From assembly GCF_036588685.1 (NCBI RefSeq), contig NC_086380.1, positions 79,670,001 through 79,734,000 on the forward strand: a stretch of 64,000 nt of DNA, given 5' to 3'. Shown piece by piece: positions 31,501 through 64,000 of the stretch. The stretch comes from Mytilus trossulus. Taxonomy: Eukaryota. A model generated the notes under the pieces. The model searched no databases. It was not told the DNA's origin and saw only the letters and a program-made list of their open reading frames with translations. Position 1 is the stretch's first letter; each line of letters opens with the position of its first letter. The position numbers were made by a program, and so were the translations under genes.

Positions 31501-34500
31501 ATTATAGGAATAGTGGTGTGGTATCTCGCTAACTGGTGAGTATGAGATAGATATTATAGGAATAGTGGTGTGGTATCTCGCTAACTGGTGAGTAAGAGAT
31601 AGGTATTATAGGAATAGTGGTGTGGTACCTCGCCAACTGGTGAGTATGAGATAGATATTATAGGAATAGTGGTGTGATATCTCGCTAACTGGTGAGTAAG
31701 AGATAGATATTATAGGAATAGTGGTGTGGTATCTCGCTAACTGGTGAGTAAGAGATAGATATTATAGGAATAGTGGTGTGGTATCTCGCTAACTGGTGAG
31801 TAAGAGATAGATATTATAGGAATAGTGGTGTGGTATCTCGCTAACTGGTGAGTAAGGGATATATATATTATAGGAATATTGGTGTGGTATCTCGCTAACT
31901 GGTGAGTAAGGGATAGACATTATAGGAATAGTGGTGTGGTATCTCGCTAACTGGTGAGTAAGGGATAGATATTATAGGAATAGTGGTGTGGTATCTCGCT
32001 AACTGGTGAGTAAGAGATAGATATTATAGGAATAGTGGTGTGGTATCTCGCTAACTGGTGAGTATGAGATAGACATCATAGGAATAGTGGTGTGGTATCT
32101 CGCTAACTGGTGAGTATGAGATAGACATTATAGGAATAGTGGTGTGGTATCTCGCTAACTGGTGAGTATGAGATAGACATTAGAGGAATAGTGGTGTGGT
32201 ATCTCACTAACTGGTGAGTAAGGTATAGATATTATAGGAATAGTGGTGTGGTATCTCGCTAACTGGTGAGTAAGAGATAGACATTAGAGGAATAGTGGTG
32301 TAGTATTTCGCTAACTGGTGAGTAAGGTATAGATATTATAGGAATAGTGGTGTGGTACCTCGCTAACTGGTGAGTAAGAGATAGACATTAGAGGAATAGT
32401 GGTGTGGTATCTCGCTAACTGGTGAGTAAGGTATAGATATTATAGGAATAGTGGTGTGGTACCTCGCCAACTGGTGAGTATGAGATAGATATTATAGGAA
32501 TAGTGGTGTGGTATCTCGCCAACTGGTGAGTATGAGATAGATATTATAGGAATAGTGGTGTGGTATCTCGCTAACTGGTGAGTAAGTTATAGATATTATA
32601 GGAATAGTGGTGTGGTATCTCGCTAACTGGTGAGTAAGAGATAGATATTATAGGAATAGTGGTGTGGTATCTCGCTAACTGGTGAGTAAGCGATAGATAT
32701 TATAGGAATAGTGGTGTGGTATCTCGCTAACTGGTGAGTATGAGATAGATATTATAGGAATAGTGGTGTGGTATCTCGCTAACTGGTGAGTAAGAGATAG
32801 GTATTATAGGAATAGTGGTGTTGTACCTCGCCAACTGGTGAGTATGAGATAGATATTATAGGAATAGTGGTGTGATATCTCGCTAACTGGTGAGTAAGAG
32901 ATAGATATTATAGGAATAGTGGTGTGGTATCTCGCTAACTGGTGAGTAAGAGATAGATATTATAGGAATAGTGGTGTGGTATCTCGCTAACTGGTGAGTA
33001 AGAGATAGATATTATAGGAATAGTGGTGTGGTATCTCGCTAACTGGTGAGTAAAAGATAGGTATTATAGGAATAGTGGTGTGGTACCTCGCCAACTGGTG
33101 AGTATGAGATAGATATTATAGGAATAGTGGTGTGGTATCTCGCTAACTGGTGAATATGAGATATATATTATAGGAATAGTGGTGTGGTACCTCGCCAACT
33201 GGTGAGTATGAGATAGATATTATAGAAATAGTGGTGTGGTATCTCGCTAACTGGTGAGTAAGGTATAGATATTATAGGAATAGTGGTGTGGTATCTCGCT
33301 AACTGGTGAGTAAGAGATATATATTATAGGAATAGTGGTGTGGTATCTCGCCAACTGGTGAGTAAGAGATAGATATTATAGGAATAGTGGTGTGGTATCT
33401 CGCTAACTGGTGAGTAAGGGAGTATTAAAATATTTAAGGAAAGTACGTGAGGCATTATCCTCATCACATGTTTTCAGTACAGAATACATGTCTAACTTTA
33501 GCATACTGTTTTGTTGTTCTGCTTTATTGTATTTATAATTGTTTGTAACTTTATATTGTCATTTATGTATATGCACTATGCCCCTTGAGGGTACTTCTTA
33601 TGGAAATAAAAGATATTCTATTCTATTCAATTCTATAATGCACCACAAGTGTTGTTCAAATACGGTAGTCCTATTCCGCATCACATACGTTTGAGTACGT
33701 CAGGTATTTTTTGCTTCACATGTGCTCCAGTACGAAAGGTACGTGTATTTTCGCATCACATGGGTTCCATTAGTGACAACTTTTTGAACCAAGAAAAAAC
33801 AATTCATTCAATATTATCGCAGTCATACACAGAAAACAAACCAAATAATCCATTTGTGTCTTTTTATACAATCTATTAATGAATAGTGGCAGATTAATCT
33901 GTATTTAGTGTTTCAACTAAGATAATATTCTAATTTTCAGCCTTGGTAGGAAGTGGACAACTTTTATGTTATTTCTGATTGGTGGATCTATGGGCATTGT
34001 TGTTGGAATAATTCAGTTCATAGGTTAGATATATGAATATATATGTAGCTTTTACTATTTGAAAATTATGCTAGTATAATCTTATAGTTCTCTTTCTTGT
34101 ATAACACACAAAAGTATGGCAAGCCGTTCTCGTCAAAACTATGTTTAAACCCTTTTTTTCGAAAAAAAATACACACTAAGATTTAAAAACCTAAAATAAC
34201 ACACTGAGAAATCGAAATTACACACTGAGATTTAAAAAAATAAAAAACACACACTGAGAATTCAAAATTACACACTGAGATTTTAAAAAGACACACTGAG
34301 ATGAAATAAATTTAAAAACACACACTGAGAATTGTTAATTACACACTGAGATTTCAAAAATACACACTGAGATTAATATGCAAATTACTAATGAATATTC
34401 ATGAGATGGATGATTCAACAGATTAATATCTTGATCTCAAGAACTCTTGTCATTATAATGAAATGCGATTCCTTCAACCAACATTCGTAATAAATTTCAA

Positions 34501-42057: not shown

Positions 42058-45000
42058 ATGACACTGATTTATGGACTTACTCTCATTGTTTGTGGTAAGA
42101 ACTCATTTTCTTCATTATCAACAGTTATAAACGAAATCAATATACAACAGAATGGAGTATGGTATTCAATGAGAAAACTTTCTACCACATATAATTGAGA
42201 GTGTAAATAGGGAATATGTCAAAGAGACAACTCGACCAAACGTCAGATAACAGCCATATGCCATCAATGGATCTTCAACGTAGTGAGAAAATCCCGCACC
42301 GGGAGGTGGTCCTCAGCTGGTCTCTAAATACAAATAAGTGCTAGTCCAGTGACAATGGACGTCACAATAAACTTCAAAACATATAAAAGAACTCAAATGG
42401 ACGTCATACTTAACTCCATAACATATAAATGGACTAAAATTGTATAGTCAGATCGACATACATAAAAATTTGTAAAGGTTCCGCGGAACCCAGTGTCTTG
42501 CCTACTTTTGCTGTTAATCGCAGGCTTAACATCAACGAGGGAAAACATCAATAAAATATTCCTCTTAAAACTATCGTTTGATTGTATTTTTAAAGCTTCT
42601 GTCCAAGTTTGGTAAAAATCCAGGATAGTTTATGAATCTTATAAATGTTTTAAAACTTTAACTGCAGACTGTATGTAATGTTAACTGAAAGAAAAACTAA
42701 GTCCATCTTTTATAAGTTAAATACAGATAAACAGGTACAAAATTTTAACAAATTTTTTTTTCTAGGTACTAGCTTTTCATAATAAACAAACTTCTTTCAG
42801 AGTTTAGTACAGATCCAAAATAGAATAAGAAAGTTATAAAAAATTTAAAACTTTAACCACAGAGTGAATTTGTTATAGGTAAAATACGGAAAAAATGCAA
42901 TTTTATTTTTACATAATTTACTTTTGGATACAATCCTATGATCATAAACAAGCTTCTGTCCAAGTTTAGTAGAAAATCAAAGGTAGTTTAAGAAAGTTAT
43001 TAAAATGCCAAAAACGTTAACCGCAGAGTTAATATTTGTGGACGTCGCCGCCGCCGACACCACTTTTTCGACTAAAGTCGAAGGCTCGACAAAAACAGTG
43101 TCTATTGTCAATGGCATTTATCATAAGTCTAAGAATGATAGTTTTACCAGTAACAATGACACTGTTACAAGATTGTTTGACTCCAGAAACGGATTTAAGG
43201 TGAGGTGAGGAGGGGTAGGTAGACATAGGGTCAGTTGCCAGGGACCCTTCTTTTATGGAAAAAAATTGAAGCATCACTAGAACGGTCCCACTCTTGAGCA
43301 GTCAGCTGGCCTTCCTTATGCAATTTCATGATCCACCAACGGATTCTCCAAAACACACGTGACCAACCAGTGAATATAATGCTAATATTGTTCTAATGTG
43401 TTTAGTTTCAGTAATTTATGCTGCAAGTGTATGTGAAGATCACAGCACACAAGCATGTCAAAGACTAGCTGCCATTAAACCAGACATGTGTCAGGACAAC
43501 TGTACATCTAGTCTATGTCCCAGAACATGTGGCCGCTGTCGTACGTACAAACTAAATACATATAAATATAGGAAGATGTGGTATAAGTCAATCAGACAAC
43601 TACGACTATGTGTATGGGCTATGCTCATTGTTAAAGGCCGTACGGTGACCTATAGTTGTTAATGTTTGTGTCATTTTGGTCTTTTGTGGATAGTTGTCTC
43701 ATTGGTAATCATACCACATCTTCTTTTTTATAACTCTTCATCCAAGTCACAATTACTAAAAGTAAACCATTACATACGTCAATATACGGTCTTCAACACG
43801 GAGCCTTGGCTCACCACCGAACAGCAAAGTAATAGGGCTAAAAAAATAATACTACTGTAAAACCGTTCAAACAGAAAACCAACGATCGAATCTACATGAC
43901 ATAAACAACGAGAATTCGACACATGTATGAACCACACCACCAAACGACAACTACTTGATTATCATATTCCTGACTTAGGACAGGTGGAAACAATTGCAGC
44001 AGGATTCAATTTTTTAACGGAACCAAACCTTCTTCCTTATCTGAAACAACAATGTAAAATCACAACATAGAAAGACACACTATAAAATATCAATTGAAAT
44101 GGTTCAATAAAAAACGTAGTTACAAAAATGAGCATATACATTTTTGATGAGTTATGTAACCATCAATCTACTTACTCGTGCACAACACTATCTCTTATGA
44201 GTATTTTGCATGAACTGTTTTTAAGTGAAGTGAGTTTAAAACATTATTTCTTTCCATGTGGATTTCGTCAATGTATTATGGATTTCACGATTTTGTGATT
44301 ATATTGATACAAGTATTCCAATTGTGTTTATGGTAGATACAATATAGCAAAAAGCATACTGTTTTTTTTAAAGATTTATATGAAAATGTTAGATAATAGT
44401 ATTATTAGTTAGATTCTAATCAAATATACAACGGCTTCTATGATGTTTGATTTTGCAAATACAGCGTAATCTGCTTAAGAGACAACCGACCACTAATTGT
44501 ATGTCCTATTTAATGCATTTGATATACTGTGGATTCAATATTATTCATTAGATACCAATTTTGTGGATTTCGTGGACACAGTCAAACCACGAAATTAAAT
44601 ATTCAACGAATGATAATTTTTTTTATAGGTTTGTATGCAGACTTCAGCAATACCTCGAAATCAAATATCCACGAATATGCATTTTTTTCTCAATCCACGA
44701 ACATTGGTATCCACGAAAATAAATGAATCTACAGTAGATTGAACATGCATTAAAAGACCACCTGCCTTATACGACCATATTTTTGCTCTAGCCTACGTAA
44801 TCTTTTAAAACAGGTTGTGCTGTGACATTGATTGCTTGTTACATACATGTGTATATGCAAATTTATGCTTAGTATATTAAATTGTTGAGAAGTAGATGTT
44901 GTTATCCTTTCAGCTCTGAAATGTTTCTCGTGTGAAAATGTCGACCATCCATCAGAGTGTAACCAAACAATCCAATGTGGTAGTATGGCTATGGTAAAAT

Positions 45001-48000
45001 ATTGACATTTTAACTAAAGATAGTATATAACACTACAGGGAGATAACTCTGTAAATATCAGCGATCGTTTTAATCACGTTCTATTGTTAAGGAAATGTAA
45101 ATCTCAAAATAAGTGTTTGTCTAACTGCTATAATTTATCCGATGAAATCTTTCCAATGAAGTGTGGGGTTCAAGTATTTTGAAACCTTTATTTTTTGGTT
45201 GAACCAAAGTAAATATGCTGTCCAACTTTAATGAAAATTAAACGAGCCAAATTAATTTTAGTCAAGGTGTTTGGTACCACCTTAACTAATAAAAAAGCTT
45301 TTCTTCAATGACAAATTAACTAATGAAGTGTATGTGTGCTGTTGCTGAGATCAACTTTTTGTTGCGTTCTAGTTGCTCAGGCTTTTAATTTTCTATAATT
45401 GTGTTTTTTCTATAAATATTTTATAGTTGATCCTTTTTTTTTCTTAACCGTAGCATTGTCAGTTTATTTTTCTACTTAGAAATGTTACATAAATGTTCCT
45501 CTGGTATCTTACGTCTCACTTTTATAAAAATTTCCAGCCGTTTGACTTGTCAATTATAATTTTCATTATGTACGAAACGTTATTCCGATTTCATATAGTA
45601 GAATAGTGGTTTATATTTATTGCCAGTACCTTCTAGATTTGAATCACTGACATGAAAAATCTCGAATGCCTTACGATGAAATAGTAGTGTAGTACTTTTC
45701 ATTGTTTTCCTTTTTCAATTTGACGTACAAATCTTTTTTAAAAACTCCCTAAAAAATCCCTAAAAAATCAACAGCTTGTAAATATTTAACAAATAAACTG
45801 ATTGGTTTGAGAAATAATTATTCACAATACAGTTTTATTTCTCTCCAGGCATGTATCGCGACACAAACAGTAACAACACAGCTCCAGAAAAAGTACCAAC
45901 TAAACTGTGTAGATAATAAAGCAAGTACATGTATACTAATTTTATTATAGAGATGATAGTATATTACTTTATCCCCGGCTTAGTATATATCTAGGATTGG
46001 TTAACGCACGTCGTTACAAAACCCATAGCCCCTGGGTGTTGCTAACTCATATCCCCGGACGTTGCTAACCATTATCCCGGGGAACTTTACGCAAGTTTTC
46101 CTTTGTCCCATGATCGCTCCTTGTGAAATATTGAATTCAGTACATTATCCATGATGTTTGTAATTAAATATTTGATTCATTAACGGTTGTGTCCTATTAT
46201 GCTGATCATTTACACTCATTTCATTAAATGTATCTCTTGACTGCCACATTTTCAAGGAATGGGACTACTGGGTTGCGTTCAATATCGTAGAGGCTATCTA
46301 GTGCTACATCGATTTATGACTATTGAACGTGTATTTAGCCCAGCTGCTACATAGATATTGATAGCAGCTACGTAGCTGCTACGTAGCCGCTACGATATTG
46401 AACACGACCCTGACCTAGCTATGCAAATTACCCACGTTGACGTCACACCATCTATGGCATAATTCGCTCACAACTTTCAGTGGGCGCCAAATTTGACTCA
46501 ATCCAGTTTCTCTGTCTCCGTATTAAAAACGTCTTATATTTGATTACCTGTAGGGTTCTACCAAAGGTAGTACAGACCCTACACCCCGTAAAAAATATAT
46601 GTAAAATTTCCAAATTTCAATAAAACTTTTTTAGAGAATGAAAAAAAACGTTGTTTTTGCGTTACTTTTTGTACCCGAGTTTCCATAAAACTCACCCGAT
46701 TCGGACTAAGACCGGGGATAAATTCGTTATCTACGTTCATATCCGTAGATATGAACGTAGATAACTTATAATATCCTGAATAGGGCTCTTCACGGTTAGT
46801 TCAGTCATATTGGATAGGGGGCAGATTTTCATAATGGAGGTGGAAATGGTATGAAAAATACGGGAAAACATCATTAAAACAGGGCAGTTGCTTGGAAACA
46901 CACATAGGATTTCCCAAAATTCATACTATTTTCACCTCTTTCAAAAAAATCTGCCTCCTATCAAATAATGCCGAACTAACCGTGAAGAGCCCTATTGTTT
47001 GATGTTCAATGACTTTGAAATAGGTGAATACACTTTTTCGTCGATTCGGGATGATTTAAAGCTTGACACTTTGGTTTTTATTGTAGATAAAGTCTAAGAC
47101 CATTTGTTTGGCTTGACACATTTTATCGCCTGTTGTATATTTTTATAAAACATGTGTTGATCTCATCCGTTGGAAGTCCGTATGAAGATTTGAACTTGCT
47201 CAAAATTTTCCACCGATCAGAACGGACGTCGACGGATAAAACATACTCTAAACGGACATTAAATGGATATGGACGGACGTCTAACGGATAAGAACACACG
47301 TGTAAAGGATTGAAAAAACACCCGTTAAGCCTCGGTCACACCTTACCGGATAGCACGAACGGACGCCTAACGGACGAAAATAAAAGTTGTCCGTTGACAA
47401 AATTGTTATCCGTTAGGAGTCCGTTGATGAAATGTACGGAAGCGTATTAGCGCCACACATTTTTTTTTTTTATTTTTCTTCTTATGTTTGCGTTATATCG
47501 CAAAGGTTTGCGTTATATCGCAAAGGTTTGCGTTATAACGCAAAGGTTTGCGTTATATCGCAAAGGTTTGCGTTACAACGCAAAGGTTTGCGTTATAACG
47601 CAAAAGGTTTGCGTTACAACGAAAAGGTTTGCGTTATAACAAATATAACGCAAAGGTTTGCGTTTAACGCAAACATAGGAAGAAAAATAACAAAAAAAAA
47701 TGTGTGGCGCTAATACGCTTCCGTAGAAATGCCCAAATAAAACGGACGCGTATAACAAATGCTTAACGGACATACACCGGATATGCAACGTACATGTACG
47801 AGAGACCGAAACGTACTGGACAGAACGGGTGTCGAACGTACATCCAACGGACGAGTACATTCGTTACGCGTCCATTTTATTTGGTCAGTACATCATCGGA
47901 CTCCCAACGGATAACAATTTTGTCAACGGACAACTTTTATTGTCATACGTTAGGCGTCCGTTCGTGCTATCCGGTAAGGTGTGACCACAGCTTTTCATTA

Positions 48001-51000
48001 GAAAAATCATATCATAACCTTTTAGGGAATATGTGTACTATCTTCACGTTGATTCACATCAAAATCTACCTTGACCAAAACCTTTAACCGGACGCGGGAC
48101 AGACGGACACGAACGGATGAACAAACGAACATACCGAAAAACATAATGCCCCTAATTTACAACTATAAATAGCATACTTACTTCACTATCTAACAGTTGC
48201 ACATACAAATGTACTTATATTCTACAAAGAAACTGATAACTTTATAATCAATAAATTATGATGATGGCAGTTTTATACGACCTTGACTGGCCATACAGCC
48301 CTCGCAAGCTCGGTAATAAGTTATTAAATGGATGATATCTCTAAAAGAGAATTCAGATAGATACATGTATCTTATTTAATTTGGGTTCTTTTTTGTTTTT
48401 GCATAGATATGCACAGACCTTTATGGCGTTGTTCCGAACCGTACTGTTCCGAATGTCAGGCGGGAAGTTGATTTGTTTGGAGGTTGCTGTGCGACAGACC
48501 TCTGCAACAAGTATGATGAACCTGATAAAATACCGGCGCCTACTGCGCATGCACATCATGGTATGTATCACTTTTTTTTTAAATAATTTACAGACTGTTT
48601 AAAAAATCGTCGGAAAGGATATAATATTCAAACTTATGGATCTGGGATTCATACACATCTAGTTTGTGAAGAGATATTTGATTTAGTAAAATGATATCAC
48701 AAATGATATCACATTGATATCGTTATTGTTTTATTCATTATATTTTTATCATCAGGGGGATATTCAAACTCATAGATAAAAATAAACTGACAACATCATG
48801 GCTTATAAAGATAAAGATAAAAAGACAAACAAATATTACACAAGATACAGCATAGAAAACTACAGACAAAGCAATACACACCCTCCCAAAAGCTGGGGTG
48901 AACTCAGGTGCTCTGGAAGGGTAAGCAGATGAAATAATTGATTAATGTACGTGTAAAAATGTGTATCGCTTTGTTTTAATTCGTCAACATGCCATATTAT
49001 TCATGAAAGAGGTGGAATACACTATTTTATTGTTTGGAATGAACATTTTATGCTATCGTATTAAATTTCACTTGAAAGAATCGCTCGTGCATGTAACAAC
49101 ATACTAGATTTTGACGAAAGAAATGTATGTATTACTGAAAAATTATTACACAAGTGTTTTCGAAGTCACAAACTAGTCAAAACATTTACTAAATGTCATC
49201 ATCAGTACAAGGACATCATTAGTACATGTAACTATAAATTAACATGCAAATGATTATTCAATGCCCGACAGGAGAGAGCATTCTGTAATACATAATATAT
49301 ATATTTCAGTTCACACTAACGGTAATATTCATCTAAGCACACATTGTCATGTAATAGACTATATATTTCAGTTCACACTAACGGTAATATCCATCTCAGC
49401 ACACATTGTCATGTAATAGACTATATATTTCAGTTCATACTAACGGTAATATTCATCTTAGCACACATTGTCATGTAATAGACTATATATTTCAGTTCAC
49501 ACTAACGGTAATATTCATCTCAGCACACATTGTCATGTAATAGACTATATATTTCAGTTCACACTAACGGTAATATTCATCTCAGCACACATTGTCATGT
49601 AATAGACTATATATTTCAGTTCACACTAACGGTAATATTCATCTCAGCACACATTGTCATGTAATAGACTATATATTTCAGTTCACACTAACGGTAATAT
49701 TCATCTCAGCACACATTGTCATGTAATAGACTATATATTACAGTTCACACTAACGGTAATATTCATCTCAGCACACATTGTCATGTAATAGACTATATAT
49801 ATTTCAGTTCACACTAACGGTAATATTCATCTCAGCACACATTGTCATGTAATAGACTATATATTTCAGTTCACACTAACGGTAATATTCATCTCAGCAC
49901 ACATTGTCATGTAATAGACTATATATTTCAGTTCACACTAACGGTAATATTCATCTCAGCACACATTGTCATGTAATAGACTATATATTACAGTTTACAC
50001 TAACGGTAATATTCATCTCAGCACACATTGTCATGTAATAGACTATATATATTTCAGTTCACACTAACGGTAATATTCATCTCAGCACACATTGTCATGT
50101 AATAGACTATATATTTCAGTTCACACTAACGGTAATATTCATCTTAGCACACATTGTCATGTAATAGACTATATATTTCAGTACACACTAACGGTAATAT
50201 TCATCTCAGCACACATTGTCATGTAATAAACTATATATTTCAGTTCACACTAACGGTAATAGTCATCTTAGCACACATTGTCATGTAATAGACTATATAT
50301 TTCAGTTCACACTAACGGTAATAGTCATCTTAGCACACATTGTCATGTAATAGACTATATATTTCAGTTCACACTAACGGTAATATCCATCTCAGCACAC
50401 ATTGTCATGTAATAGACTATATATTACAGTTCAAACTAACGGTAATATTCATCTTAGCACACATTGTCATGTAATAGACTATATATTTCAGTTCACACTA
50501 ACGGTAATATTCATCTCAGCACACATTGTCATGTAATAGACTATATATTTCAGTTCACACTAACAGTAATATTCATCTAAGCACACATTGTCATGTAATA
50601 GACTATATATTTCAGTTCACACTAACGGTAATATTCATCTCAGCACACATTGTCATGTAATAGACTATATATTTCAGTACACACTAACGGTAATATTCAT
50701 CTCAGCACACATTGTCATGTAATAGACTATATATTTCAGTTCACACTAACGGTAATATTCATCTCAGTACACATTGTCATGTAATAGACTATATATTTCA
50801 GTTCACACTAACGGTAATATTCATCTCAGTACACATTGTCATGTAATAGACTATATATTTCAGTTCACACTAACGGTAATATTCATCTCAGCACACAATG
50901 TCATGTAATAGACTATATATTTCAGTTCACACTAACGGTAATATTCATCTCAGCACACATTGTCATGTAATAGACTATATATTTCAGTTCACACTAACGG

Positions 51001-54000
51001 TAATATTCCTCTCAGCACACATTGTCAAATAATAGACTATATATTTCAGTTCACACTAACGGTAATATTCATCTCAGCACACATTGTCATGTAATAGACT
51101 ATATATTTCAGTTCACACTAACGGTAATATTCATCTCAGCACACATTGTCATGTAATAGACACAGTCGTCTGCCAATATTTAGCCACAAACAGTGGTTGT
51201 CATCTGCCATGCGTGTCGACCTTGTGTCCCACAACCTGTGGAATGTGTTGTAAGTTAAATTTTTAACCATACAACAACATATTTGATATATTAATTGATA
51301 TTTCTGGAAAATATAATTATGTTATAGATTGCATCACGTAAAAACTAGTAAATTTCATTAGACTGTTTCCTTTCTTTTCTCTGCTTGGCTCTGACAGCTG
51401 GACAACGAGGTTGGAGAAGACTAACGCATGTTTCAAGGGAGTCTATGTGTCAAAGTTTATTTTAGCCAGTGCGAATATTTTGTCAACAAACTAACCATAA
51501 TACCACTATCAAGTTCATTAATAGATAACTACATTAAAATAATTATGACATTCGGATAGTAGTTATAAAGCATCACATGGAGTCGAATAGATCACACATA
51601 ATTATGCATTTTATGTATTGGATAACCTCCCATATATCAGGGGAAAGAATCATAAACAAAAAAAATATTTTGATGTAAAATATGTTCCTTCATATTTTGC
51701 GATTCCCTTTTAATGACTTCATGTCTCAATATATTCCGTCAATTTTGCTTTAACCAGTTTTTATCCGTATAAGGCTAAGACTACTTATATAAAGCATCAG
51801 TTCACGGAATATGCAGTAGTTTTAATTTTCCGCATAAAATATGCAAGCAGACAAACAAATTCAAAACAAATAGAAAGAAAAAAGAAGACGTATCTACGGG
51901 ATGTTATAATCGGTATACTCAAGGTACACATATACACAACCGGATACTAACAAAATAAGCACACATTATTTATCAATTATGACCAAAACATAAAAAAATC
52001 CAACCAGTAATAAACCATAAAAATGCATAAAAATTAGAAAGACTCATACATTGTAAATCTTTGGCGGATCCCGGGGGTGGGGGAGGGGGTGGGGGTTGGG
52101 GTGGGGGGTCGGACCCCCTTTTTCGGTCGATCAATGTATTTGAATGGAGACATATAGTTGGACCCCCCTTTTTAAAATGGCTGGATCCGCCCCTAAAAAT
52201 AGACTTAAATGTATAACACTTTACAATGTCGAAAGTCGAATCACACTTATCTGTCTACGAGATCAAAAATGAATATTGCCTGTTATCATGCAGTTTTTAT
52301 TAAGTAAAATTTTCTTTTAAAGACTCAAAAGAGTGACGAAAGATACCAGAGGAACAGTCACTCATAAATCGAAAATAAACTGACAACGCAATGGCTAAAA
52401 ATGAAAAAAAGACGAACAGACAAAAAATAGTACACATGACACAACATAGAAAACTAAAGAATAAGCAACACGAACCCCACACAAAACTGGGGGTGACCTC
52501 AGGTGCTCCGGAAGGGTATGCAGATCCTGCTCCACGTGCATTTGGCACCCGTCGGGTTGCTCATGTTATTATAACAAATCCTGTTAATAGTCTCATTCAA
52601 TAGGTCACATTCATGAAAGGGAAGGGAATTGTATTTACGACGTAAGGAGCATATCTGATATCATCTGTGAAACTGATATTCTATTACATTTTTAATATGT
52701 TTAACATTATCGTAACCCACTGATGGTTTGTAAAATAGTAGCAATAAACGATAAAGAGTTGGACTCATTTGAATGTAAATTGGTTTTATTATAAATTGCT
52801 GGGTGATGTATTTGCATGTATTTGGTTTTGATGTTATATTTGTTATTCTCGTGGTGTTTTGTCTGATGCTTGGTCCGTTTCTATGTGTGTTACGTTTCGG
52901 TGTTGTGTCTTTGTTCTCCTCTTATATTTAATGCGTTTACCTCGGTTTTAGTTTGTTACCCCGATTTTGTTTTTTTGTCCATGGATTTATGAGTTTTGAA
53001 CAGCGGTATACTACTGTTGCCTTTATTTACAAACATTAGATATGTATATGTAACAAATCACTTTTATTGTTATAGCACTTACGTGTTATGAATGTTCGGC
53101 AACTAATAACCCAGGGAATTGTTCCAGCAGAGTCCATTGCAATAGTGATAAGGTACGGTAAATTTCGAGTAATTAATCGGAGATTTTTTTGGCAGAAGTC
53201 GAATCCTCAGCGGATCTTTCCATTAATTTCATTATTCTCACGAACACAATTTCTTTTCCTCACATCAACATTATCATCGTCTGCATTGAAGGAATGAATA
53301 TCGACACTCGTTCATCTAATAATGAAATATAGCAAAAGAAAAAAAATCTGTTGTTTCGAGGTAATTTGTGGCAAATTTTAAATTTTAGATAGGTATAACG
53401 TTAAAATTTTCTACTTCATTTGAGGTGTTAAGGCTTTTGTTTACTTTCGCAGAACACTCCCGAACATTCTTATATCGTGTTTGGCTTGCCTAAGCTTTAT
53501 ATCTGCATGTGTGGATAACTATTGAATTATATGCGACTGTCATATAAGTGAGAGGTTTAGCTAGCTTTACAACCAGGTTTAATCCACAATTTTCTACATA
53601 AGACAATGTCTTTGCCAAGTCAGAAATATGAAAGTTCTTTGCAATGCGATGAATGTGTTTAAGTTTTATAATTTGACATTTGATTATAGACGTTCCTTTT
53701 TGAATTTCATTTGAGTTCGGTATTTATGTTATTTTACTTTTAACTTGTTGAATATTCAGGTGTTTTTTTTTTTATTTCTTTAAGTGTTGTGATGCCAGTA
53801 AGATGTTTTGATATTTATGCAGCATTTCAGTCTTCTATCATACACTATTTTAATAATGAAAAAATCATGATGCTAAACATGTTGCGTCTAGTCTAGTTAT
53901 ACATTCTTTAGCATTTAATTCCTTTTGGATTTGTTGTTTGAAGACAAAGTTTTCTTTTAGCTGCCTATATAAATATAGGTAGAAAAATCTAACAATTATT

Positions 54001-57000
54001 AATATATAGTCACAGTTTTCAAAAAAAATACGACTTCACTGAATATATTTTATTTTTAATTCTAATATGACGTCCTTATTACGCATTGTAAACAAAGCCG
54101 TGTTCCGTGGTTTTTTAACTTATCAAATATGAATTATAATACAGAGACTCCTCGGGGAGGAAACGGGAAACGCCAAACGTTTTTACTGTATTTTCTTACG
54201 CTTCGACCTATACAAATACTGAATTTGTCATAATAGAATCGAAATAATTCCTTCATGTCATGCTCTATGCTCATTTTAACATGGGTAGGCATTATAGTTG
54301 ACCACATTTTACACCTCGCTAACGCTCAGTGTAAAATATCGATAAATATAATGCCTACCCATGTTAAAATGAGCATAGAGCATGACATGAAGGAATTATT
54401 TCTTAATTTGAAATATGCACTTGGTGCCAACCCTGATAATTTATACCGAACCAGTTAAGATTTGATAAACGATCTCAAATGTTTTATATTTCGTGCTATA
54501 GGAAGTGTGCATTGCTATAGAAACCCATCAATTTGATTTTCACGGAGGATACAAGCTTGGTTGTGCACCAAAAGAGGTATGTTACTCAGGTCATTTTAAA
54601 AGAACAGCAGAAGAATACCCGATTAAATATTTCAACACAATCTAGGATTTCATACTTGACACGGATTAAATGCTTTTTGAATTTTTCATTTTGGACAACG
54701 AATTCTAATGCTCGATGGAGTTCAAATATTTTATAGACTTGTAAGTGGAATAAAAGGGGCGTGATATACCGAATGGGAATATTCAACTCAGACTTTGGCA
54801 AATCCACGAAATTAAGTTTAGTTTAAACATATTTTATTTGTTAAAGTACAAATTGGATAAGACACAAGTCAAACAGACTTATGAAGTCTTCTCCATTTAA
54901 CATTTATAGCAATATAATACAAAAATATATGTATGAGCATGCATGTAAAGAATGGTATATCTAAATATATATATAAATATGGATCAAAAGACGGAAAATT
55001 GAAGATTGAAGAAAAAGAAAACAATAATAATACAGAAAAAATAAATAAAAAATAAAAATAAAAATAAAAATATATAATATATAAANNNNNNNNNNNNNNN
55101 NNNNNNNNNNNNNNNNNNNNNNNNNNNNNNNNNNNNNNNNNNNNNNNNNNNNNNNNNNNNNNNNNNNNNNNNNNNNNNNNNNNNNNNNNNNNNNNNNNNN
55201 NNNNNNNNNNNNNNNNNNNNNNNNNNNNNNNNNNNNGTGTGTGCGATCATGGTTTGCTACCTAGACAATTTGAAATCTTTCCGAACTTTTAATAAACTCA
55301 AAGACATTTTTGAAAATGTTTCGGTTTTGCTCTAAAGTAAGAAGACAACTACCCGAGGTAAGTAGTTCTATGTTAATTTTACAATCATTTGGAAGCCAGC
55401 GAAGACTTTCAAACATTTTATTTCGTATGTTTGAATATAATATACATTTAAAAAAGAAATGATAGGAATCTTCACGATTAACACCACAGCGGCAGGAAGG
55501 GTCAGAAATAATGTTGACCCTATATAGATCATAGTTTAAGGATGATGCAAAACATCGAAGTTGGGTGAGAATTATATTCAATTTTCGATTTCCAAATTCA
55601 TATTGCTTCGAAATTAAGTATCCACTAAAATACGATTTCTCCTACATGGACGAATATAAGTAAATCTATTTACCAGAATTGTTATCACATCAGCAACACG
55701 ACGGGTTCCACATATGGAGCAGGATATGCTTACCCTTCCAGAGCACATGAAATCACCCCTAGTTTTGGTAGGGTTCGTGTTGTTTATTCTTTAGTTTTCT
55801 ATGTTGTGTCATGTGTACTATTAGACATGTTACGAAAAGGTATATTCACGACGCTGAGGTTGACAATTTACACTTTAAATGAGGGGAACATGTCAAAATA
55901 CAAAAGAGATTAGCTGTATATAGATATTATAAATATTGCGTATGGAACGAATATTCAATAATATTTGAACCACAAGAAATATAAGAAAAAGATATTCAAA
56001 AATTCTTTGATATTTTTTAATAAACTCTAATGCGGAAAGTTTTGGGGGAAGGGTGCAGATAAATGTGGAAGATGTGCAGAGCACGGAGACACGGGGTACA
56101 CACTTAGGGAACTACCATTTGATTTTTATGGGAAGGGGGGGGGGGCTAGGACGAAATTTGAAAAAAAGTTGGCAGGACCGGAGTTTTGAGTAAAAAAAAT
56201 GCAGGCTGATACACTTGCCAAAACAAAAAGTCAGGACGACAATTTAGTTTAAAAAAATGTACAAATGTGTCTTATCTAGGGGTATGCAAGCCCTTAAAAG
56301 ACTTTGCAAGTATCCTTAGGTTTTACCAATTTATCTACTCGGGATATATATGTAACGGTAATTTTCATATACTTTGTTATGAAACAAAACAAAGAAGTGA
56401 CCACATGTATTTTAATCCAGTTATTTGCACCCTAATTGTATCTAACGTGGTCTATTTTAAAACAACCAAAGAGCGTTTTTATATACGTTTTAGAAAAAAA
56501 TACTGCCGGTCTTTTTTCTATTTCAGGTACAATGCTAGGGAGGTACCAGTTGTTGTTAGGGGGAGGGGAGGGGCATAAAAAAGTCAGAATAAACTTATTA
56601 AAAAGGATGAACCGAATAGAGTGATAAATAAAACAGGACAGTGAGAGATTACAAAACAAATGCAGACCAAAATTTGTCATCTCCACCCCCACCCCCCACC
56701 CCCCACCCCAACCCAACCAGACTATAGAGCACTGTGCAGGATTAGTGGAGCGACAGATTGGATTGTTCAGGAACTGTAATAATAAAATAACTAATCTATA
56801 AATGCATGGCTTACTATGTAAATATTATCAATCTAGAATCGAACGAACTTGTATAACTCTTAGACCCCCTTTTTTCCAGCCCCCTTTTTCGAGCCCCCTT
56901 TTTGTCCGGCTCGCTCACTCCTGCACGCGTACACCTTTCACGTCCTATATAATCGCCAGCAATGATACCCAAAAAGCAATTGTCATATTCGATGTAACAC

Positions 57001-60000
57001 TATGATGTTCTAGATAATGTGATTTATATTAACCACGAAGCACATGATTTGAAGTTTACCTGTTCAAATCTATAATCAATGTTTTGACACCGTCCCCACA
57101 TTTAAAGTCTTATTTGTCAACCTCAGCGTCGAGAATATACCTTTTCGTAACATGTCTATTAGTTGTATGTTTGTCTTTTTCATTTCTAGCCATGGCGTTA
57201 TCAGTTTTATTTATGAGTTTGACTGTCCCTTGGGTATATTTAGTCCTTCTTTTTTAGACATGCAATAATTTACTGACGCGGGATATAGATGGGATATGTT
57301 GTGACACTAACTTTTGCAATGGAAACTATGTACCATCAACAACTGTGATTCCTTCTACCTCAACTGTATATGACAACAATCTCGGGATGCCTACAGGTAC
57401 CATTATCACTTCTTATATTCAATAAACGATTTGCTTAATAACATTGAGAATTGAAATGGGGAATATGTCAACGAGACAACCACCATCAGCAAAACATAGT
57501 CGAATGCCATCAATGGGTCTCAACACACCAAGAAAATCCAGCAACTGGAAGCGTGCTTCAGCTGGCCCCTAAACAAAAATGTGTACTAGTTCAGTGATAA
57601 TGAGGTCATATTAAACAACAAAGCAAGTAAGTTGTGGTATTTTTGTAAAGAAAGAAACCCGCTTAACTTATTATTGATAATTAATGTTAAAGTCGCATAT
57701 TTTAATATTTATTTCTGAAAAGTTTAAACGTGTCAACTTTGTTTTACACTTTCATAAATAGTCGCATCAATCGTTTAAAAGATGTTTAACATGCCATTAC
57801 TATTTTGTAATGCTGAAAATAACAAAATATTCAAATTTATATACATATAAAATATAATGTAAAGGTTAAAACAAATGCAACTATAACCATTAAGAGATAA
57901 GACATAGCACCAATACCATATTTCAATCTTAAAATGTCAATGAAATTGAGTGACAACAATCTATCTAATTACCCGCTTCGTAAAAACACGAGCAACACGA
58001 TGGGTGCTACATGTGAAGCACCACCTGAAACCAACCCAAGGTTTTGGTGGGGTCCATGTTGTTGTTGTGTCCCTATTTTTGCGTTTGTTCACACGCATCT
58101 TTGACTATGTTAATATAATGAAATTTGATGCTTCTGTCGTACAAGTGAGAGGTTCAGCGCTATAAAACTTGGTTAATCTCACCATTTTCTACATTTGAAA
58201 ATGCCTGTACTAAGTCAGGAATATGACAGTTGTTTTTTGGTCATTTGATTAGGGACTTTCTGTTTTGATATTCCTCGGATTTCAGTATTTCTTTGATTTT
58301 ACTTTTCACGGTTTTAGTGGTATAATTGATAATTGTTAATTGTAGAGATTATACATCAAATCTAGTACTAGTATGTGAAATTATATGAAAACGCCCATTT
58401 TAATTATTTAGATGTGGGATATTTTATTATTTCCCCGAGGGTATCACTAGCCCAGTAGTCAGCACTTCTGTGTTGACTTGATTTATCATTGATATGTTTA
58501 TAATTATAAATTAACTGTTAACAACACTTTTTTGAATTACTAAGGCTTTTCTACCTCATGATACCTTAGCTGTATTTGGCAAATTTCTTTGGTTATTTTC
58601 GGTCCTTTATGCTCTTCAACTTCGTACTTTATTTGGTCTTTAAAACATTTTTGATTCGAGCGTCATTGATTAGTCTTTTGTAGACGAAACGCGCGTCTGG
58701 CTGTCGCATATGTAAAATTTGAATCAATGTATCAATGATGAGTTTATTATGTCTACAAAGGTTGTTATCCAGATCTTATAAATGGCTGCCCTGTTGGATT
58801 TTCTAGAGAACGAAACAGTTGCTATAGTATTGGACGAAAATGGAAAACTATGACAGACGCCAGAGTAAGTATAACAATATATAGGACGTTTAAAAATATC
58901 TTAATCTCGAAGCTAAATACAGAGTGCAACATATCATGTTAGGAAACTTTTGTGGATTTATTATTATTTATTGGATGCCAATTTTCGTGGATACAGGTGA
59001 ACGAGTTACTGTGGATTAATTACTATGCATTGGATACCAATTTTCGTGGATACAGGTGATTTTTAAATATTCAACAAATTGCACATTTTCTATAAGCTTG
59101 TATACAGACATTGGAAAACAGCGAAATTAAATATCACCGAAATGTTTTCCCTCAATCCACGAAAATTAGTTCCCATTTAAATGATTGATTTTACAGTAAA
59201 AGCTTTATGATTAAAGTTCAGGTATAAACCTTATTCAAAATTTACAATTCCTTGCTTGAACCTATAGGAGCATTCAACCGGATGGACCATGTACCTCGAA
59301 TGCATTATTTCACCACCGGCAAAGTAATACAACATACTATAAAGTTTTCGCTCAAAAACTGTATGTAGAAAAAACATGTCCCTATGAAAAAACGGACGGA
59401 GGGACAGTGGTAGCAAGAATATGTCCTGCAAAAGCTGCATGAATTTTAATTTTAAAATTTGGGACTGCATATCTGATATAACTGTATTATGAATTGCCTT
59501 ATCAATAAAATTATATTTACTGGTAATTCATATCTACGACACCAACTTATTTCATTCTAAAGCAAAAATGCACTAAACACCAAATTAATAAAGCAGTGTA
59601 AAACATAGATAGATACTGAATCATAAAAACAGATAAAAACAATGGAGCAAAAAAGCAATACCAAGATTTTATACCGGGGTATTAGCCTCACGTATTTATG
59701 TTAACATTGCTAACTTTTATTGACCAAATGGTTGCGCTTCAAACGGAAACAAGTTTCTAGAATTATTTTCTATTGTAGACGGAATGTTTGAGAAATTGCA
59801 GCAGACTTGCAATTATAAGCAGCGAAAGGGAAAACGAAGACATTACACATTTTTTACAACGTGTTTCACACCATGCAAATGCTTTCCATGGAGTGAATGA
59901 AGGTTGTATTATCTTATCCCAGGCATAGATGAGAGGGGGAATGACCTTTATCGGGACTCCGGGATCGGGTGTTTATAAGCTCGGAATTTCGGGAATGATC

Positions 60001-62444
60001 CTTTCGGAATCCGGGAATTATTTTTTTTCAAATTTCGGGGTGTCGGGATTTAAATTCGGGATTACGTGATTTCATGTTTGTAAGTCCTGGATTTCTGGAT
60101 TAGGATCCCGCCGATCACCCCCCCCCCCCCCCTTTTCCTCTAGATTACCTAAGCCGATATTTGGCACTTTTTGGGAAATTTCAGGTCCTCAAATCGCTAC
60201 AATATTGTACTTCTTTTGGCTTTGTTACTATTTTGATCTGAGCGTCACTTATGAGACGAAATGCGCGTCTGGCGTATCAAATTAAAATCCTGGTACCTTT
60301 AACTATTGTATTATATGTCCTTAACATATCTTTCTATTGTATAAAATGGTATCAAATGCATTTTTCTAAATGAAATATATTGTTTTGCAGAACAAGGAAA
60401 CGAAACTTTTTTATAAACGCGCATACTTAAGTTCCGATCAGTCCAGCAAGATTAAGCTCATTAGATTCATTTGACATTTTTTCTGATTAGACTGTTATGT
60501 ATGTAATATGCTAAACTGATTTTCATATGTGTATGTAAAATACTAAGATGTCGTATTATTGCTAATGAGACGACCATCATCTACACAGCAACTTTTGCAT
60601 AGGTACTATTTATGTACTATTTATGTACCACAAATCTGTAGTACGAAATCTACTATTGTGTTACTTACGAATTATTGTAATATTTAAGTATCTGTATTTT
60701 ACAGTACTTGATTTGTACTTGAAATTTAAGTACTACAGTTTTTTGGTTGCATGGTTACATTTTCAGGATTTTGGACGTTTGTCCTTTTTCAAATTTCATG
60801 AAGTTATGATGTTCAAATATGGAATACTGTGATCATTGTTGGTATTATTTTGGTACCAATATTTTGAGTACAAATCAAGTACTGGAAAATACAAGTACCT
60901 AAATATTACAATAATTTTAAAGTAAAGAAATATATAGTACTAAATATTACAAGTAAATTTCCAGTACTACAGATTTTAAGTACAGAAATAGTACCTATGC
61001 AAAAGTAGCTGTGTAGAATCCAAATGACGGCGATGTAAATATAGGCAACAGTAGTATGCAACTGTTCGAAATTCACAAATCGATTGAGAGAAAAACAAGC
61101 CGGGGTACGAACCAAAACTGTGGGAAATACATCAACTATAAGAGGAGAACAACGACACAACAGAAACATTAAAATGCAACACACACAGAAACGATTTATT
61201 AGATAATAAAAGGCATTTTCCTAACTTGACACAGGACATTTTAAGAGAAAATGGTGAGTTGAACCTGTTTTTGAGGCTAGCAAAACCTCCCGTTTTAATT
61301 GCAATGTTAAATACTAGTATAACACTAAAATGACAACATTACATGGCAGGAAAAGATACAAATAAATTGAAGAACATATATAGGTTCACTGTTTATAATA
61401 CACCACATCGACTGGCACTGTTTACATTGTTGTTTTCGATTCATCCACACGCCATAGTAGCTATATTTTGTGTTTTGTTTTCGAGTCATCCACACGCCAT
61501 AGTACCTATATTTTGTGTTTTGTTTTCGAGTCACCCACACGCCATAGTACCTATATTTTTGTTTTGTTTTCTAATAGAAGGTACTATATATTTGGAAAGT
61601 AGTTGACCATTTAACCAAATATTTTTTAATGGTTTTTATGTTTCGGTATTTTCTCAACAGCATCATTAGTTGTTTTGTATTGCACTATTTGTTTGCAAAT
61701 ACGCTAGATAAGACTACAACGGTGATGATCATTAAAACTACATGGTTGATATTAAGTGTTCAAACTCTAATATTTTCATTATTATTTGTCGCCTCTGATG
61801 GCAAGGGTATCACGTTTTCTGCATGAAACTTAATAAATAATGAAAATCATTCAAAGACACTATATTGTATTTCTATCATGACAATCGATGCTTGTATAAT
61901 ATATAACTGGGTGAAGGGGCTCAGTAGTGCAGTGTCCTAAGTAGTCGAACGACTATTTACTTAACGTATCAACGAGGTTGTGAGTACTAATCTAGCAAAT
62001 GAAATGTACGCTCGACTCTAATCTACTTTGACTAGGAGTTTCAGATTTTATACTTAAGGTGGATGGGTCCCCTAGCACTCTGGCTTCCGCAATCAATAAA
62101 AACTGACCGCCATGAAGTGGCGTTTTACACTAATCAATCAATCAATTAATCATTCAATCGAGGTTTGTTTGTAACTTTTTTCAGATTATCACTATTGGAT
62201 TGAAGCTTATAGAAATCACGGTGGTAACAGCCCATGGCATTGGCCCAGTATTGGTTCTAGTTTGACCTACTCTCATTGGAGAAACGGATCGCACCCTCAC
62301 CAAAGTCATTATTTGGAACGTTGTGCCAGCATAGGTAAAGGGGAATGGAATCATCATTCTCCTCATGGATATTACTGGGATCATCATAGCTGTAATGCAA
62401 AATTTGCTGCACTATGTGAATTTCCCCTAGGGAATGATCCTTAA
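42058..62444 (+). CDS. Secreted mosaic protein: signal peptide - ShKT - Ly6/uPAR-like - ShKT - Ly6/uPAR-like - Ser/Thr linker - His-rich C-type lectin domain; 12 exons, ~464 aa
   Basis: Exons 42058-42094 (MTLIYGLTLIVC), 43406-43540 (VSVIYAASVCEDH...CPRTCGRC), 44914-44993 (PLKCFSC..EC..C), 45849-45920 (ACIATQ...YQLNCVDNK, GC donor), 48407-48560 (ICTDL...CCATDLCN), 51112-51249 (VHTN...CPTTCGMC), 53076-53152 (SLTCYEC..NC..C), 54502-54576 (EVCIAIE...YKLGCAPKE), 57258-57396 (TC...CCDTNFCN), 58761-58864 (GC..GCPVGF..NSCY..MTDAR), 59779-59902 (TECLRNCSRLAIISSERENE), 62185-62444 (YWIEA..WHW..YSHW..ERCA..WDHHSC..ALCE). Sum 1395 nt, phases consistent; AATAAA at 62454. An assembly gap lies in one intron. 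Confidence 0.82.
42455..43096. mobile_element. Probable non-autonomous Helentron/Helitron-like repeat in intron 1
   Basis: Internal ~180-bp imperfect repeats (aagcttctgtccaagttt..., aaactttaac), a gcc microsatellite, and a terminal hairpin ttcgactaaagtcgaa followed by ggctcgacaaaaa. Confidence 0.45.
45968..46722. mobile_element. TIR element with a nested 140-bp MITE (46270-46410)
   Basis: Outer tttatccccggcttagt ... actaagaccggggataaa; inner gggttgcgttcaatatcgtag ... ctacgatattgaacacgaccc. Confidence 0.6.
46779..46996. mobile_element. Palindromic MITE
   Basis: aatagggctcttcacggttagttc ... gaactaaccgtgaagagccctatt, with mirrored interior. Confidence 0.75.
47329..47991. mobile_element. Long-TIR MITE containing a nested element (47435-47725) with internal ~20-bp tandem repeats
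   Basis: Outer ggtcacaccttaccggatagcacgaacggacgcctaacg is inverted at ~47948-47986. Inner tacggaagcgtattagcgccacacattttt ... aaaaatgtgtggcgctaatacgcttccgta is flanked by direct gaaatg. Confidence 0.85.
49296..51161 (+). repeat. 62-bp minisatellite, ~30 copies, made of a splice acceptor plus the start of the second ShKT exon
   Basis: Unit ctatatatttcag|ttcacactaacggtaatattcatctcagcacacattgtcatgtaataga. The last copy runs into unique exon sequence (..HCHVIDTVVCQYL..). Confidence 0.98.
54241..54402. mobile_element. 162-bp hairpin MITE with a perfect ~56-bp inverted repeat
   Basis: gaaataattccttcatgtcatgctctatgctcattttaacatgggtaggcattata and its exact reverse complement. Confidence 0.8.
55086..55236. 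other. Assembly gap (151 N)
   Basis: Run of n. Confidence 1.
55261..55610 (-). mobile_element. 3' fragment of a non-LTR retrotransposon ORF2 (C-terminal CCHC-type region, CR1/L2-like)
   Basis: LTQLRC..SSLNYDLYRVNIISDPSCRCG..EDSYHFFFKC..YSNIR....LLTSG...IFK.V.EFIKSSERF*; 5'-truncated. Confidence 0.7.
55822..57158. mobile_element. ~1.3-kb TIR element inserted into a Penelope 3' fragment
   Basis: tagacatgttacgaaaaggtatattcacgacgctgaggttgacaa ... ttgtcaacctcagcgtcgagaatataccttttcgtaacatgtcta. The host repeat breaks at ...atgtgtacta and resumes ...gtttgtctttttcatttctagccatggcg. Confidence 0.8.
58605..58745 (+). repeat. Hammerhead-bearing dispersed repeat
   Basis: gagcgtcattgattagtcttttgtagacGAAAcgcgcGTCtggc at 58658-58701. 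Confidence 0.7.
60581..61016. mobile_element. Palindromic TIR element (ta|cacagc...gctgtg|ta)
   Basis: ctacacagcaacttttgcataggtactattt ... aaatagtacctatgcaaaagtagctgtgtag. Confidence 0.7.
61430..61572 (+). repeat. 45-bp tandem repeat, 3 copies
   Basis: tcatccacacgccatagta recurs at 61441, 61486 and 61531. Confidence 0.85.
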
Positions 62445-64000
62445 CTTTCCTTTAATAAAACTTCCAACAAGGTTGCCTATTTAACATTTTGATTCGAGCG
62501 TCACTAATGAGTCTTTTGTAGACTAAACGCGCTTCTGGCGTAAATATATTTCTTTTATCCTGGTATCTATTATGCGTGTATTTGTAAGATTGTTTGTATG
62601 TTTTTAACGTTCAAGGATATTGATGTCAATTTAATGGAATTGTATACAATTGTTATACTAATCCTGGTACCTCTGATAACAAATTATACAAGTGATATGT
62701 TAAGCTTGCTATAAAACTAGGTTTAACGAACAATTTTCTATAAGACAAAATGCGTGTGCCAAGTCATGAATATAAAAAAGAAAAGTCACAAAAATACTCA
62801 ACTCCGAGAAAAATTCAAAACGGAAAGAAATGGAAAAATTAAAAACTCAAACAACTCAAACGAATGGATAACAGCTGTCATATCCCTAACCTAGTGTATG
62901 AATTGTTCTCCATTCATTTGATGAGTTTGAGCATATGCTTTTGCAATTTGGTAAGGGACTTAAATAATTATCTATTTGTATACCCCGGAGTTCGTTTTTG
63001 TTTTTAATATTTCACTTTGTATCATCAGAAATGCAGAAAATGTATTGATGTCTTCCTCTTATGCAATTAGCTACATTTGTTGAAAAGCCTTCGGAATTTT
63101 GCGTGATTCAATCTCGGCAACTTCGTTGGTTTTTTTTATTTTCAACTCTTTCGATTTGAGCGTAAAACATTACATTTTTGTAAAACAAACGCGTGTTTGT
63201 TGTGCAAAAGTTGAATTCTGGTATCAATGATCGCATTTACTTGCAAATGACGTACAATAGATAGTATTTAAATGAATACACGCAACCAGGACATTCACTA
63301 TTACGTATTCTGTTTCTACACCTCAAACGGCACAGAACAACATGTTTTACTTCATCCAACAAATGGACCAGAACATGTTTTCTTTTTGTATTAATATATG
63401 TTTGTGTTTTCATGATACGAATGAAATAATATAAGTTAAGCTTTGGCTATTTTCATTGGATTTAAGATTGTGTCTGGAAAAAAAAACAAAAAACAAAAAC
63501 AAAAACTGAACTTATATGTACACATAGCAAATTCCACGTTTGTAATGTAGGATGCTGATACTGAGATTGTTTTCAAATTAAATTTATTTTGTTTATATTT
63601 TATCTGTTTTGCAACTCTTATTTACACGTGAAAACGTGAATATGTTACATATTTAAATACCATTATTAGTGTCACAGAAAAAACGAGCTCCAATGCAAAT
63701 TTAAAAAATCTATAAAAATTACCAAATTTAATTTTACACTGACCAATTTCAATATATACCAACTTATTATTGGAATAAAACTTAATATACTGCAATACCG
63801 TAGTGCCTAAATGTTCTCTCTGATTGTTTTTTATTCGACCACAACGTTCTCTACGTGTCTTTGCCACTTGTATGTTGTATGTTTTCATACTGCTAGAATC
63901 CATCTATAATAAATTGTTCTGTATTTCTGAAGTTACATTGTTACAGTTTTTTTTATTTGAATATTGATTTTAAAAACTTTATTTGTTATAAAAACAAGTT

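Follow-up and report, generated by a model that had tools for sequence, protein, structure and literature searches.

A 64,000-nucleotide window of the Mytilus trossulus genome (NCBI RefSeq assembly GCF_036588685.1, contig NC_086380.1, forward-strand positions 79,670,001 to 79,734,000; the coordinates given here are those of the window) carries a 62-bp minisatellite of 30 copies at the border between intron 5 and exon 6 of a gene encoding a predicted secreted lectin-like protein. Each unit of this array (49298..51161, forward strand) consists of the last 12 nt of intron 5 followed by the first 50 nt of exon 6. The array belongs to an already described class of repeats, called mirages and known from lancelets and humans, and it is of the acceptor-side type. 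Very probably, exon 5 is spliced to one copy only, which runs into the body of exon 6; the last acceptor is likely chosen as the nearest to the GTAAGT donor of this exon, and the remaining 29 would probably leave with the intron as neutral clutter.

The array was delimited by Tandem Repeats Finder with a period of 62, 30.0 copies and 96% matches. The intron part ends in CAG in all copies, within a TTTCAG context in 27 of them and TTACAG in the remaining three (copies 8, 12 and 19). A previous sequence-only reading of this DNA had described about 30 identical splice acceptors; their number and their common CAG stand, the copies being near-identical, with 15 distinct versions, rather than identical. 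The consensus is matched exactly by 13 of the 30 copies, 27 substitutions are found per 1860 positions, and an extra TA lengthens two copies to 64 nt each. None of the substitutions falls on an acceptor AG, where 0.87 would be expected (P 0.42). The AGs are thus neither eroded nor specially protected, with no selection signal either way. A DNA search of the unit against its own genome gave 29 matches, all located within the array. Since the unit is found only there, the array arose from the edge of exon 6. No AG|GT or AG|GC proto-splice site occurs within the 62-bp unit, and the array can therefore not be excised from within the exon as a new intron, which rules out intron gain by tandem duplication according to the Rogers model.

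Further evidence comes from the assembled contigs of independent sequencing runs, whose ‘RNA?’ and ‘DNA?’ labels are guesses. The array is present in all three DNA runs examined (X1, X3 and X6, from two organisms). In X1, the depth reaches 435-508 on the unit, as compared to 5.6-8.3 on exon 5, and the TA insertion of the two longer window copies is also found. A closed 92-nt repeat contig with a depth of 42.5 (4.3-5.6 for single-copy sequence) was observed in X3, and repeat contigs with a depth of 556-562 (26.7-54.6 for single-copy sequence) in X6. The corresponding ratios of repeat to single-copy depth are about 8-10 in X3 and 10-21 in X6, the window itself having 30 copies, and depth being no measure of copy number. 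The exon letters of the organisms sequenced in these runs differ from those of the window, so the array is neither private to one haplotype nor an assembly artefact. One 103-nt contig of X3 (depth 4.85), over 49263-49335, looks like another duplication of this acceptor, distinct from that of the array, whose unit of about 73 nt takes in more of the intron; this single low-depth contig is a weak hint.

A 12-exon gene model extending over 42058-62445 and using acceptor 30 encodes a protein of 464 amino acids, identical to the RefSeq entry XP_063397807.1 of M. trossulus. In this model, exon 5 (48407..48560, forward strand, donor GTATGT), the upstream partner of the array, is joined to the last acceptor (51100..51111, forward strand), and the resulting exon 6 (51112..51249, forward strand, 138 nt, donor GTAAGT at 51250) encodes a His-rich linker and the second of two ShK-like domains. 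The same junction is found in spliced contigs, which make up all the transcript evidence. Exon 5 is joined to a single unit in the spliced contigs of three of the four RNA-like runs (X2, X9 and X13, from three studies). The X9 contig (1463 nt, depth 42.6) contains the tail of exon 5, the segment 51111-51249 without any gap and the start of exon 7, and so does the X13 contig (731 nt, depth 2), which comes from a run labelled ‘DNA?’ and yet is spliced. In the X2 contig (644 nt, depth 19.6), position 48559 is joined to the unit over a GT..AG skip, and the match ends 51 letters further on, short of the following acceptor. The evidence from X2 consists thus of the junction and 51 letters of the unit, the in-frame run to exon 7 being seen in X9 and X13. 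In none of these three runs is there a contig in which exon 5 is followed by more than one unit.

The expectation of the sequence-only reading that the acceptor nearest to the gtaagt donor is favoured agrees with both the RefSeq model and the spliced contigs of the three runs. Its further proposal, that upstream acceptors are used and lead either to nonsense-mediated decay (NMD) or to a short isoform, finds no positive support in these contigs, the dominant ones corresponding to a single product starting at 51112, the outcome that this reading had itself named as a refutation; a low level of upstream use may still exist, since X9 contains a repeat-junction contig, described below, and NMD would hide such products.

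Several points weigh against the exclusive use of the last acceptor. Assembled contigs show the dominant form and drop the rare ones, and the fourth RNA-like run (X14) has no cover of exon 5 or of the unit. The exon found in X9 and X13 differs from that of the window by 5 letters in 139 nt. X9 also contains a closed 92-nt repeat-junction contig (depth 28.8), whereas the unique intron sequence flanking the array is covered by no contig. Divided among 8-30 copies, the depth of this contig amounts by rough arithmetic to about 2-8% of the spliced depth. Unspliced RNA, carry-over of DNA and a minor form using upstream acceptors would account for it equally well; there may thus be a minor unspliced or upstream-acceptor fraction. 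A C at position +26 of the unit is present in this repeat contig and absent from the X9 spliced contig, which means either that the last copy has diverged there or that the spliced contig stems from another allele. For organism B, the C at +26 is found both at the exit from the array in DNA (X6) and in the spliced contig (X2). Finally, starting from acceptors 29 or 28, the exon would be 200 or 262 nt long, not far above the internal exons of the gene (72-154 nt), so that size alone does not exclude these two acceptors.

How the last copy is selected can be considered from the copies themselves. Over 40 nt upstream and 50 nt downstream, no letter distinguishes copies 5, 6, 7, 10 and 11 from copy 30. 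Since these five upstream acceptors do not differ from the last one over this range, whatever signal decides must be located outside it, and it would most simply be the unique part of the exon (51162-51249) together with its donor. Scanning from the 5' side for the first AG would pick copy 1, and is thus probably not the mode of choice. The site closest to the donor at 51250 would instead be selected by cross-exon definition, and the remaining 29 copies would leave with intron 5. As to its history, the array may have been born by one local duplication at the intron 5/exon 6 border, the copies then being multiplied and homogenised through slippage or unequal exchange. As it stands, the array is a finding of little consequence, one more mirage in a gene whose splicing is normal as far as the dominant form goes. 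Its value lies rather in offering a ready-made case for studying how an invertebrate chooses among acceptors, with five decoys that do not differ from the site in use across 90 nt, in an array shared by several related mussels.

The alternative that survives best, although we hold it to be improbable, is that leaky decoys act as an expression dial: a sizeable share of the transcripts would use upstream acceptors and be destroyed by NMD, and the copy number would tune the amount of lectin. The reading frame lends itself to such a scheme. When exon 5 is joined in silico to each acceptor, 29 of the 30 products run into a stop that precedes the 51250 donor by 93-1833 nt; simple read-through leaves the frame open only from the exon start at 51112 (copy 30). 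A transcript is exposed to NMD when its stop precedes an exon junction by more than 50-55 nt, and this distance is exceeded in silico for all 29 upstream acceptors, every one of which is intact. The previous statement that only the last acceptor gives a full-length protein is accurate for simple read-through and too strict otherwise, since three other in-silico routes keep the frame, namely a product of 418 aa that skips exon 6, one of 448 aa that starts from a cryptic AG at +48, and one of 468 aa with a 12-nt micro-exon made through a weak internal GT; none of these three forms was seen in the assembled contigs. The repeat-junction contig of X9 could represent the leaky fraction, but its small share of the spliced depth would be given as well by unspliced RNA or DNA carry-over. 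The different depth ratios of X3 and X6 hint at a variable copy number. The lack of any joint between exon 5 and two units in X2, X9 and X13 argues against a sizeable leak, as does the X9 spliced contig, unbroken through the unit. Splicing is also reported to be undisturbed in a comparable amphioxus gene (PMC3087553).

It is a good deal less probable that the array allele is null or weak, the in-frame contigs being derived from array-free alleles. The disagreement between the spliced and repeat contigs of X9 at +26 would be explained in this way, and contigs cannot reveal whether array-free alleles exist. However, the array is found in the window and in each of the three DNA runs, and the 12 exons of the window are intact and match the full RefSeq protein. 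The array exit and the spliced contig of organism B, with their common C at +26, also speak for a spliced product that comes from an array-bearing allele.

Slightly more doubtful still is the possibility that some transcripts end within the array, which would then serve as their last exon. Use of an upstream acceptor together with a poly(A) site in the array would give rise to a ShK-like/Ly6 protein of 194 aa, whose hydrophobic tail, of the type found in glycosylphosphatidylinositol (GPI)-anchored proteins, could act as a membrane anchor. Ly6 proteins are often GPI-anchored. The first acceptor (49298..49309, forward strand), with unique intron sequence on its 5' side, indeed gives a read-through product of 194 aa, whose peptide had been given letter for letter by the sequence-only reading. 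Its 17-residue tail has a mean Kyte-Doolittle hydrophobicity of 1.96, a score reached in only 5 of 1987 long-enough base shuffles. This rarity vanishes under a more constrained comparison: with the exon protein fixed and synonymous codons resampled, the score is reached in 1073 of 13538 long-enough draws (8%). In 341 simulated duplications using the other exon starts and lengths of the gene, 12 reached it, all of them from exon 6 itself. The tail being ordinary under synonymous resampling, it is likely a by-product of the frame shift. The hydrophobicity test was chosen after the tail had been seen. When the read-through peptide of 34 aa was compared by phmmer with 1.84 billion representatives, no match was returned at E<=0.001, with a query so short that full-length relatives were missed too. 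A candidate poly(A) signal, AATAAA (50225..50230, forward strand), was created by a substitution in copy 15, but it is found in this copy only, the other copies having AATAGA. The X9 repeat contig, without intron flanks, would fit such a transcript. No isoform of the 194-aa type is found among the five members of the protein cluster retrieved with the exon 6 peptide, which is weak evidence against it. If this possibility were true, the copy number would alter the proportion of a membrane-bound Ly6 form to the secreted lectin, and this would be a mirage endowed with a function, not reported in the mirage literature covered. An assembly artefact, in which a collapsed or looped read would have inflated a single exon edge, has a negligible probability despite the high similarity of the copies (96%), and is refuted as regards the existence of the array by its 15 distinct versions and by the closed high-depth repeat contigs of independent DNA runs, among which X1 also shows the variant with the TA insertion.

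The silent-copy interpretation retained above is in line with what is known of other mirages. The term is used for the amphioxus globin gene BflGb6, in which an intron's 3' end, together with the 5' portion of exon 2, is tandemly repeated in 3-6 copies (PMC3087553). These BflGb6 copies have many intact splice signals and a variable number, and splicing is regular (PMC3087553). Mirages are likewise mentioned for the amphioxus Adh, troponin C and PGBD5 genes (PMC3902484). Somatic changes in length are ascribed to the mirage of Adh3. The mussel array resembles that of BflGb6 by its tandem copies of the acceptor edge lying in the upstream intron, by the retained splice signals and by the production of a regular mRNA. 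It differs by its mollusc host, by its size (30 x 62 bp instead of 3-6 x 150-160 bp), by the integrity of all 30 AGs and by the similarity of its copies (96%, compared to 81-100% in BflGb6).

Two human cases are also comparable. The 844ins68 insertion of CBS duplicates the border between intron 7 and exon 8, and the downstream site wins (PMC2630376, PMC7490669). In contrast to the 30 copies of the mussel array, c.844_845ins68 has two, and its unit is mostly intronic (52+16 nt) whereas that of the mussel is mostly exonic (12+50 nt); skipping of the CBS insertion rescues a point mutation, unlike what is seen for the mussel array. The 37-bp variable number of tandem repeats (VNTR) in intron 7 of F7 is an exon-edge minisatellite whose identical and functional pseudo-sites are silent, the site nearest to the exon body being used (PMC1557585). 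The mussel array shares these features, namely an exon-edge minisatellite, silent pseudo-sites and the use of the site nearest to the exon body. The F7 VNTR is nevertheless on the donor side, and resembles a neighbouring array of the same window (26700-33418) rather than the acceptor array. No paper on such repeats in mussels was found in a literature search that left out most subscription papers.

This neighbouring array is one of three further confirmed mirages located within about 140 kb, which brings the total to four mirages in four genes. It lies in an SLC22 gene (26700..33418, 52 bp x 129) and repeats the last 38 nt of exon 26606-26737 with 14 nt of intron. Its donors are GTGAGT in 124 of the 129 copies and GTGAAT in the other five, and all five database SLC22 models take the first donor. 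The two others, both on the donor side, are each found in a paralogue of the lectin gene, at its first ShK-like exon (L014:7486-7998, 100 bp x 5, and L018:6208-6460, 86 bp x 3); as their units are not of the same length, this exon may have been hit by two independent events. Paralogues are found nearby on contig C8 and also on contig C10. A mirage is thus present in four of the five genes mapped in the window and the paralogue stretches, none being seen in the C10 paralogue, and 4 of the 31 listed tandem arrays overlap mapped coding sequence. This suggests that mirages are common in mussel genomes, in a small sample picked around the initial finding; if so, they matter for gene annotation and for the mapping of short reads. 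Another 60-bp array of about 84 copies extends from L010:8245 to L011:3274, with a unit resembling an exon end followed by a GTGAGC donor; the putative exon preceding it in L010 matched no Pfam family.

The predicted architecture of the host protein comprises a signal peptide, an ShK-like domain, a Ly6/uPAR domain, then a second ShK-like and a second Ly6/uPAR domain, and a C-type lectin domain. In the gene model, all on the forward strand, exon 1 (42058..42094) provides the start codon and the predicted signal peptide, judged by eye, and exon 2 (43406..43540) the first ShK-like domain (Pfam E 0.055, below the cut-off). Two in-frame acceptors of exon 2, at 43406 and 43412, are 6 nt apart, the upstream one being taken by RefSeq. 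The first Ly6/uPAR domain (44914..45920) is encoded by exons 3 (44914-44993) and 4 (45849-45920), the latter followed by a GC-AG intron with a GCAAGT donor (45921-45926); exon 4 is absent from two database models of relatives, where a gene-calling miss is likely. Exons 7 (53076-53152), 8 (54502-54576) and 9 (57258-57396) encode the second Ly6/uPAR domain and a Thr-rich linker (53076..57396), and exons 10 (58761-58864), 11 (59779-59902) and 12 (62185-62445) the C-type lectin domain, up to the stop (58761..62445).

The lectin domain exceeds its Pfam threshold (Lectin_C, 25.8 bits for a cut-off of 22.6), unlike the ShK-like domains, which score 14.5 and 14.1 bits for a PF01549 cut-off of 20.9. 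The ShKT label previously given to exon 6 has thus to be softened to ShK-like, with 14.1 bits and E 0.073. Ly6-type families are matched by the host protein, and C-type lectins are matched in the PDB. The AlphaFold model computed from an alignment has a mean predicted local distance difference test score (pLDDT) of 53.3 and a predicted template modelling score of 0.37; with a pLDDT of about 40-50, it is too weak at the ShK-like part of exon 6. A search with the exon 6 peptide among proteins of 80-2000 aa retrieved one cluster, of five Mytilus proteins. In M. galloprovincialis and M. edulis, the orthologues are predicted models of 464-465 aa that keep exon 6, and one M. edulis model of 253 aa is a fragment. 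A literature search gave no paper recognisable, from its title or the opening of its abstract, as dealing with this Mytilus gene.

Other features of the window were observed. Between the transporter and lectin genes lies an intronless 494-aa stop-to-stop frame (37793-39277, reverse strand) with Vanin_C and CN_hydrolase domains, which is vanin/biotinidase-like. In intron 4 of the lectin gene, long inverted arms, recognised by eye, flank a 20-bp x 7.7 tandem repeat (47486-47640), and the whole element (47330-47980) is likely an insertion similar to a miniature inverted-repeat transposable element. Also by eye, broken frames at 3520-5634 resemble a decayed reverse transcriptase of a long interspersed nuclear element, and an exon at 12631-12894 resembles that of another C-type lectin.

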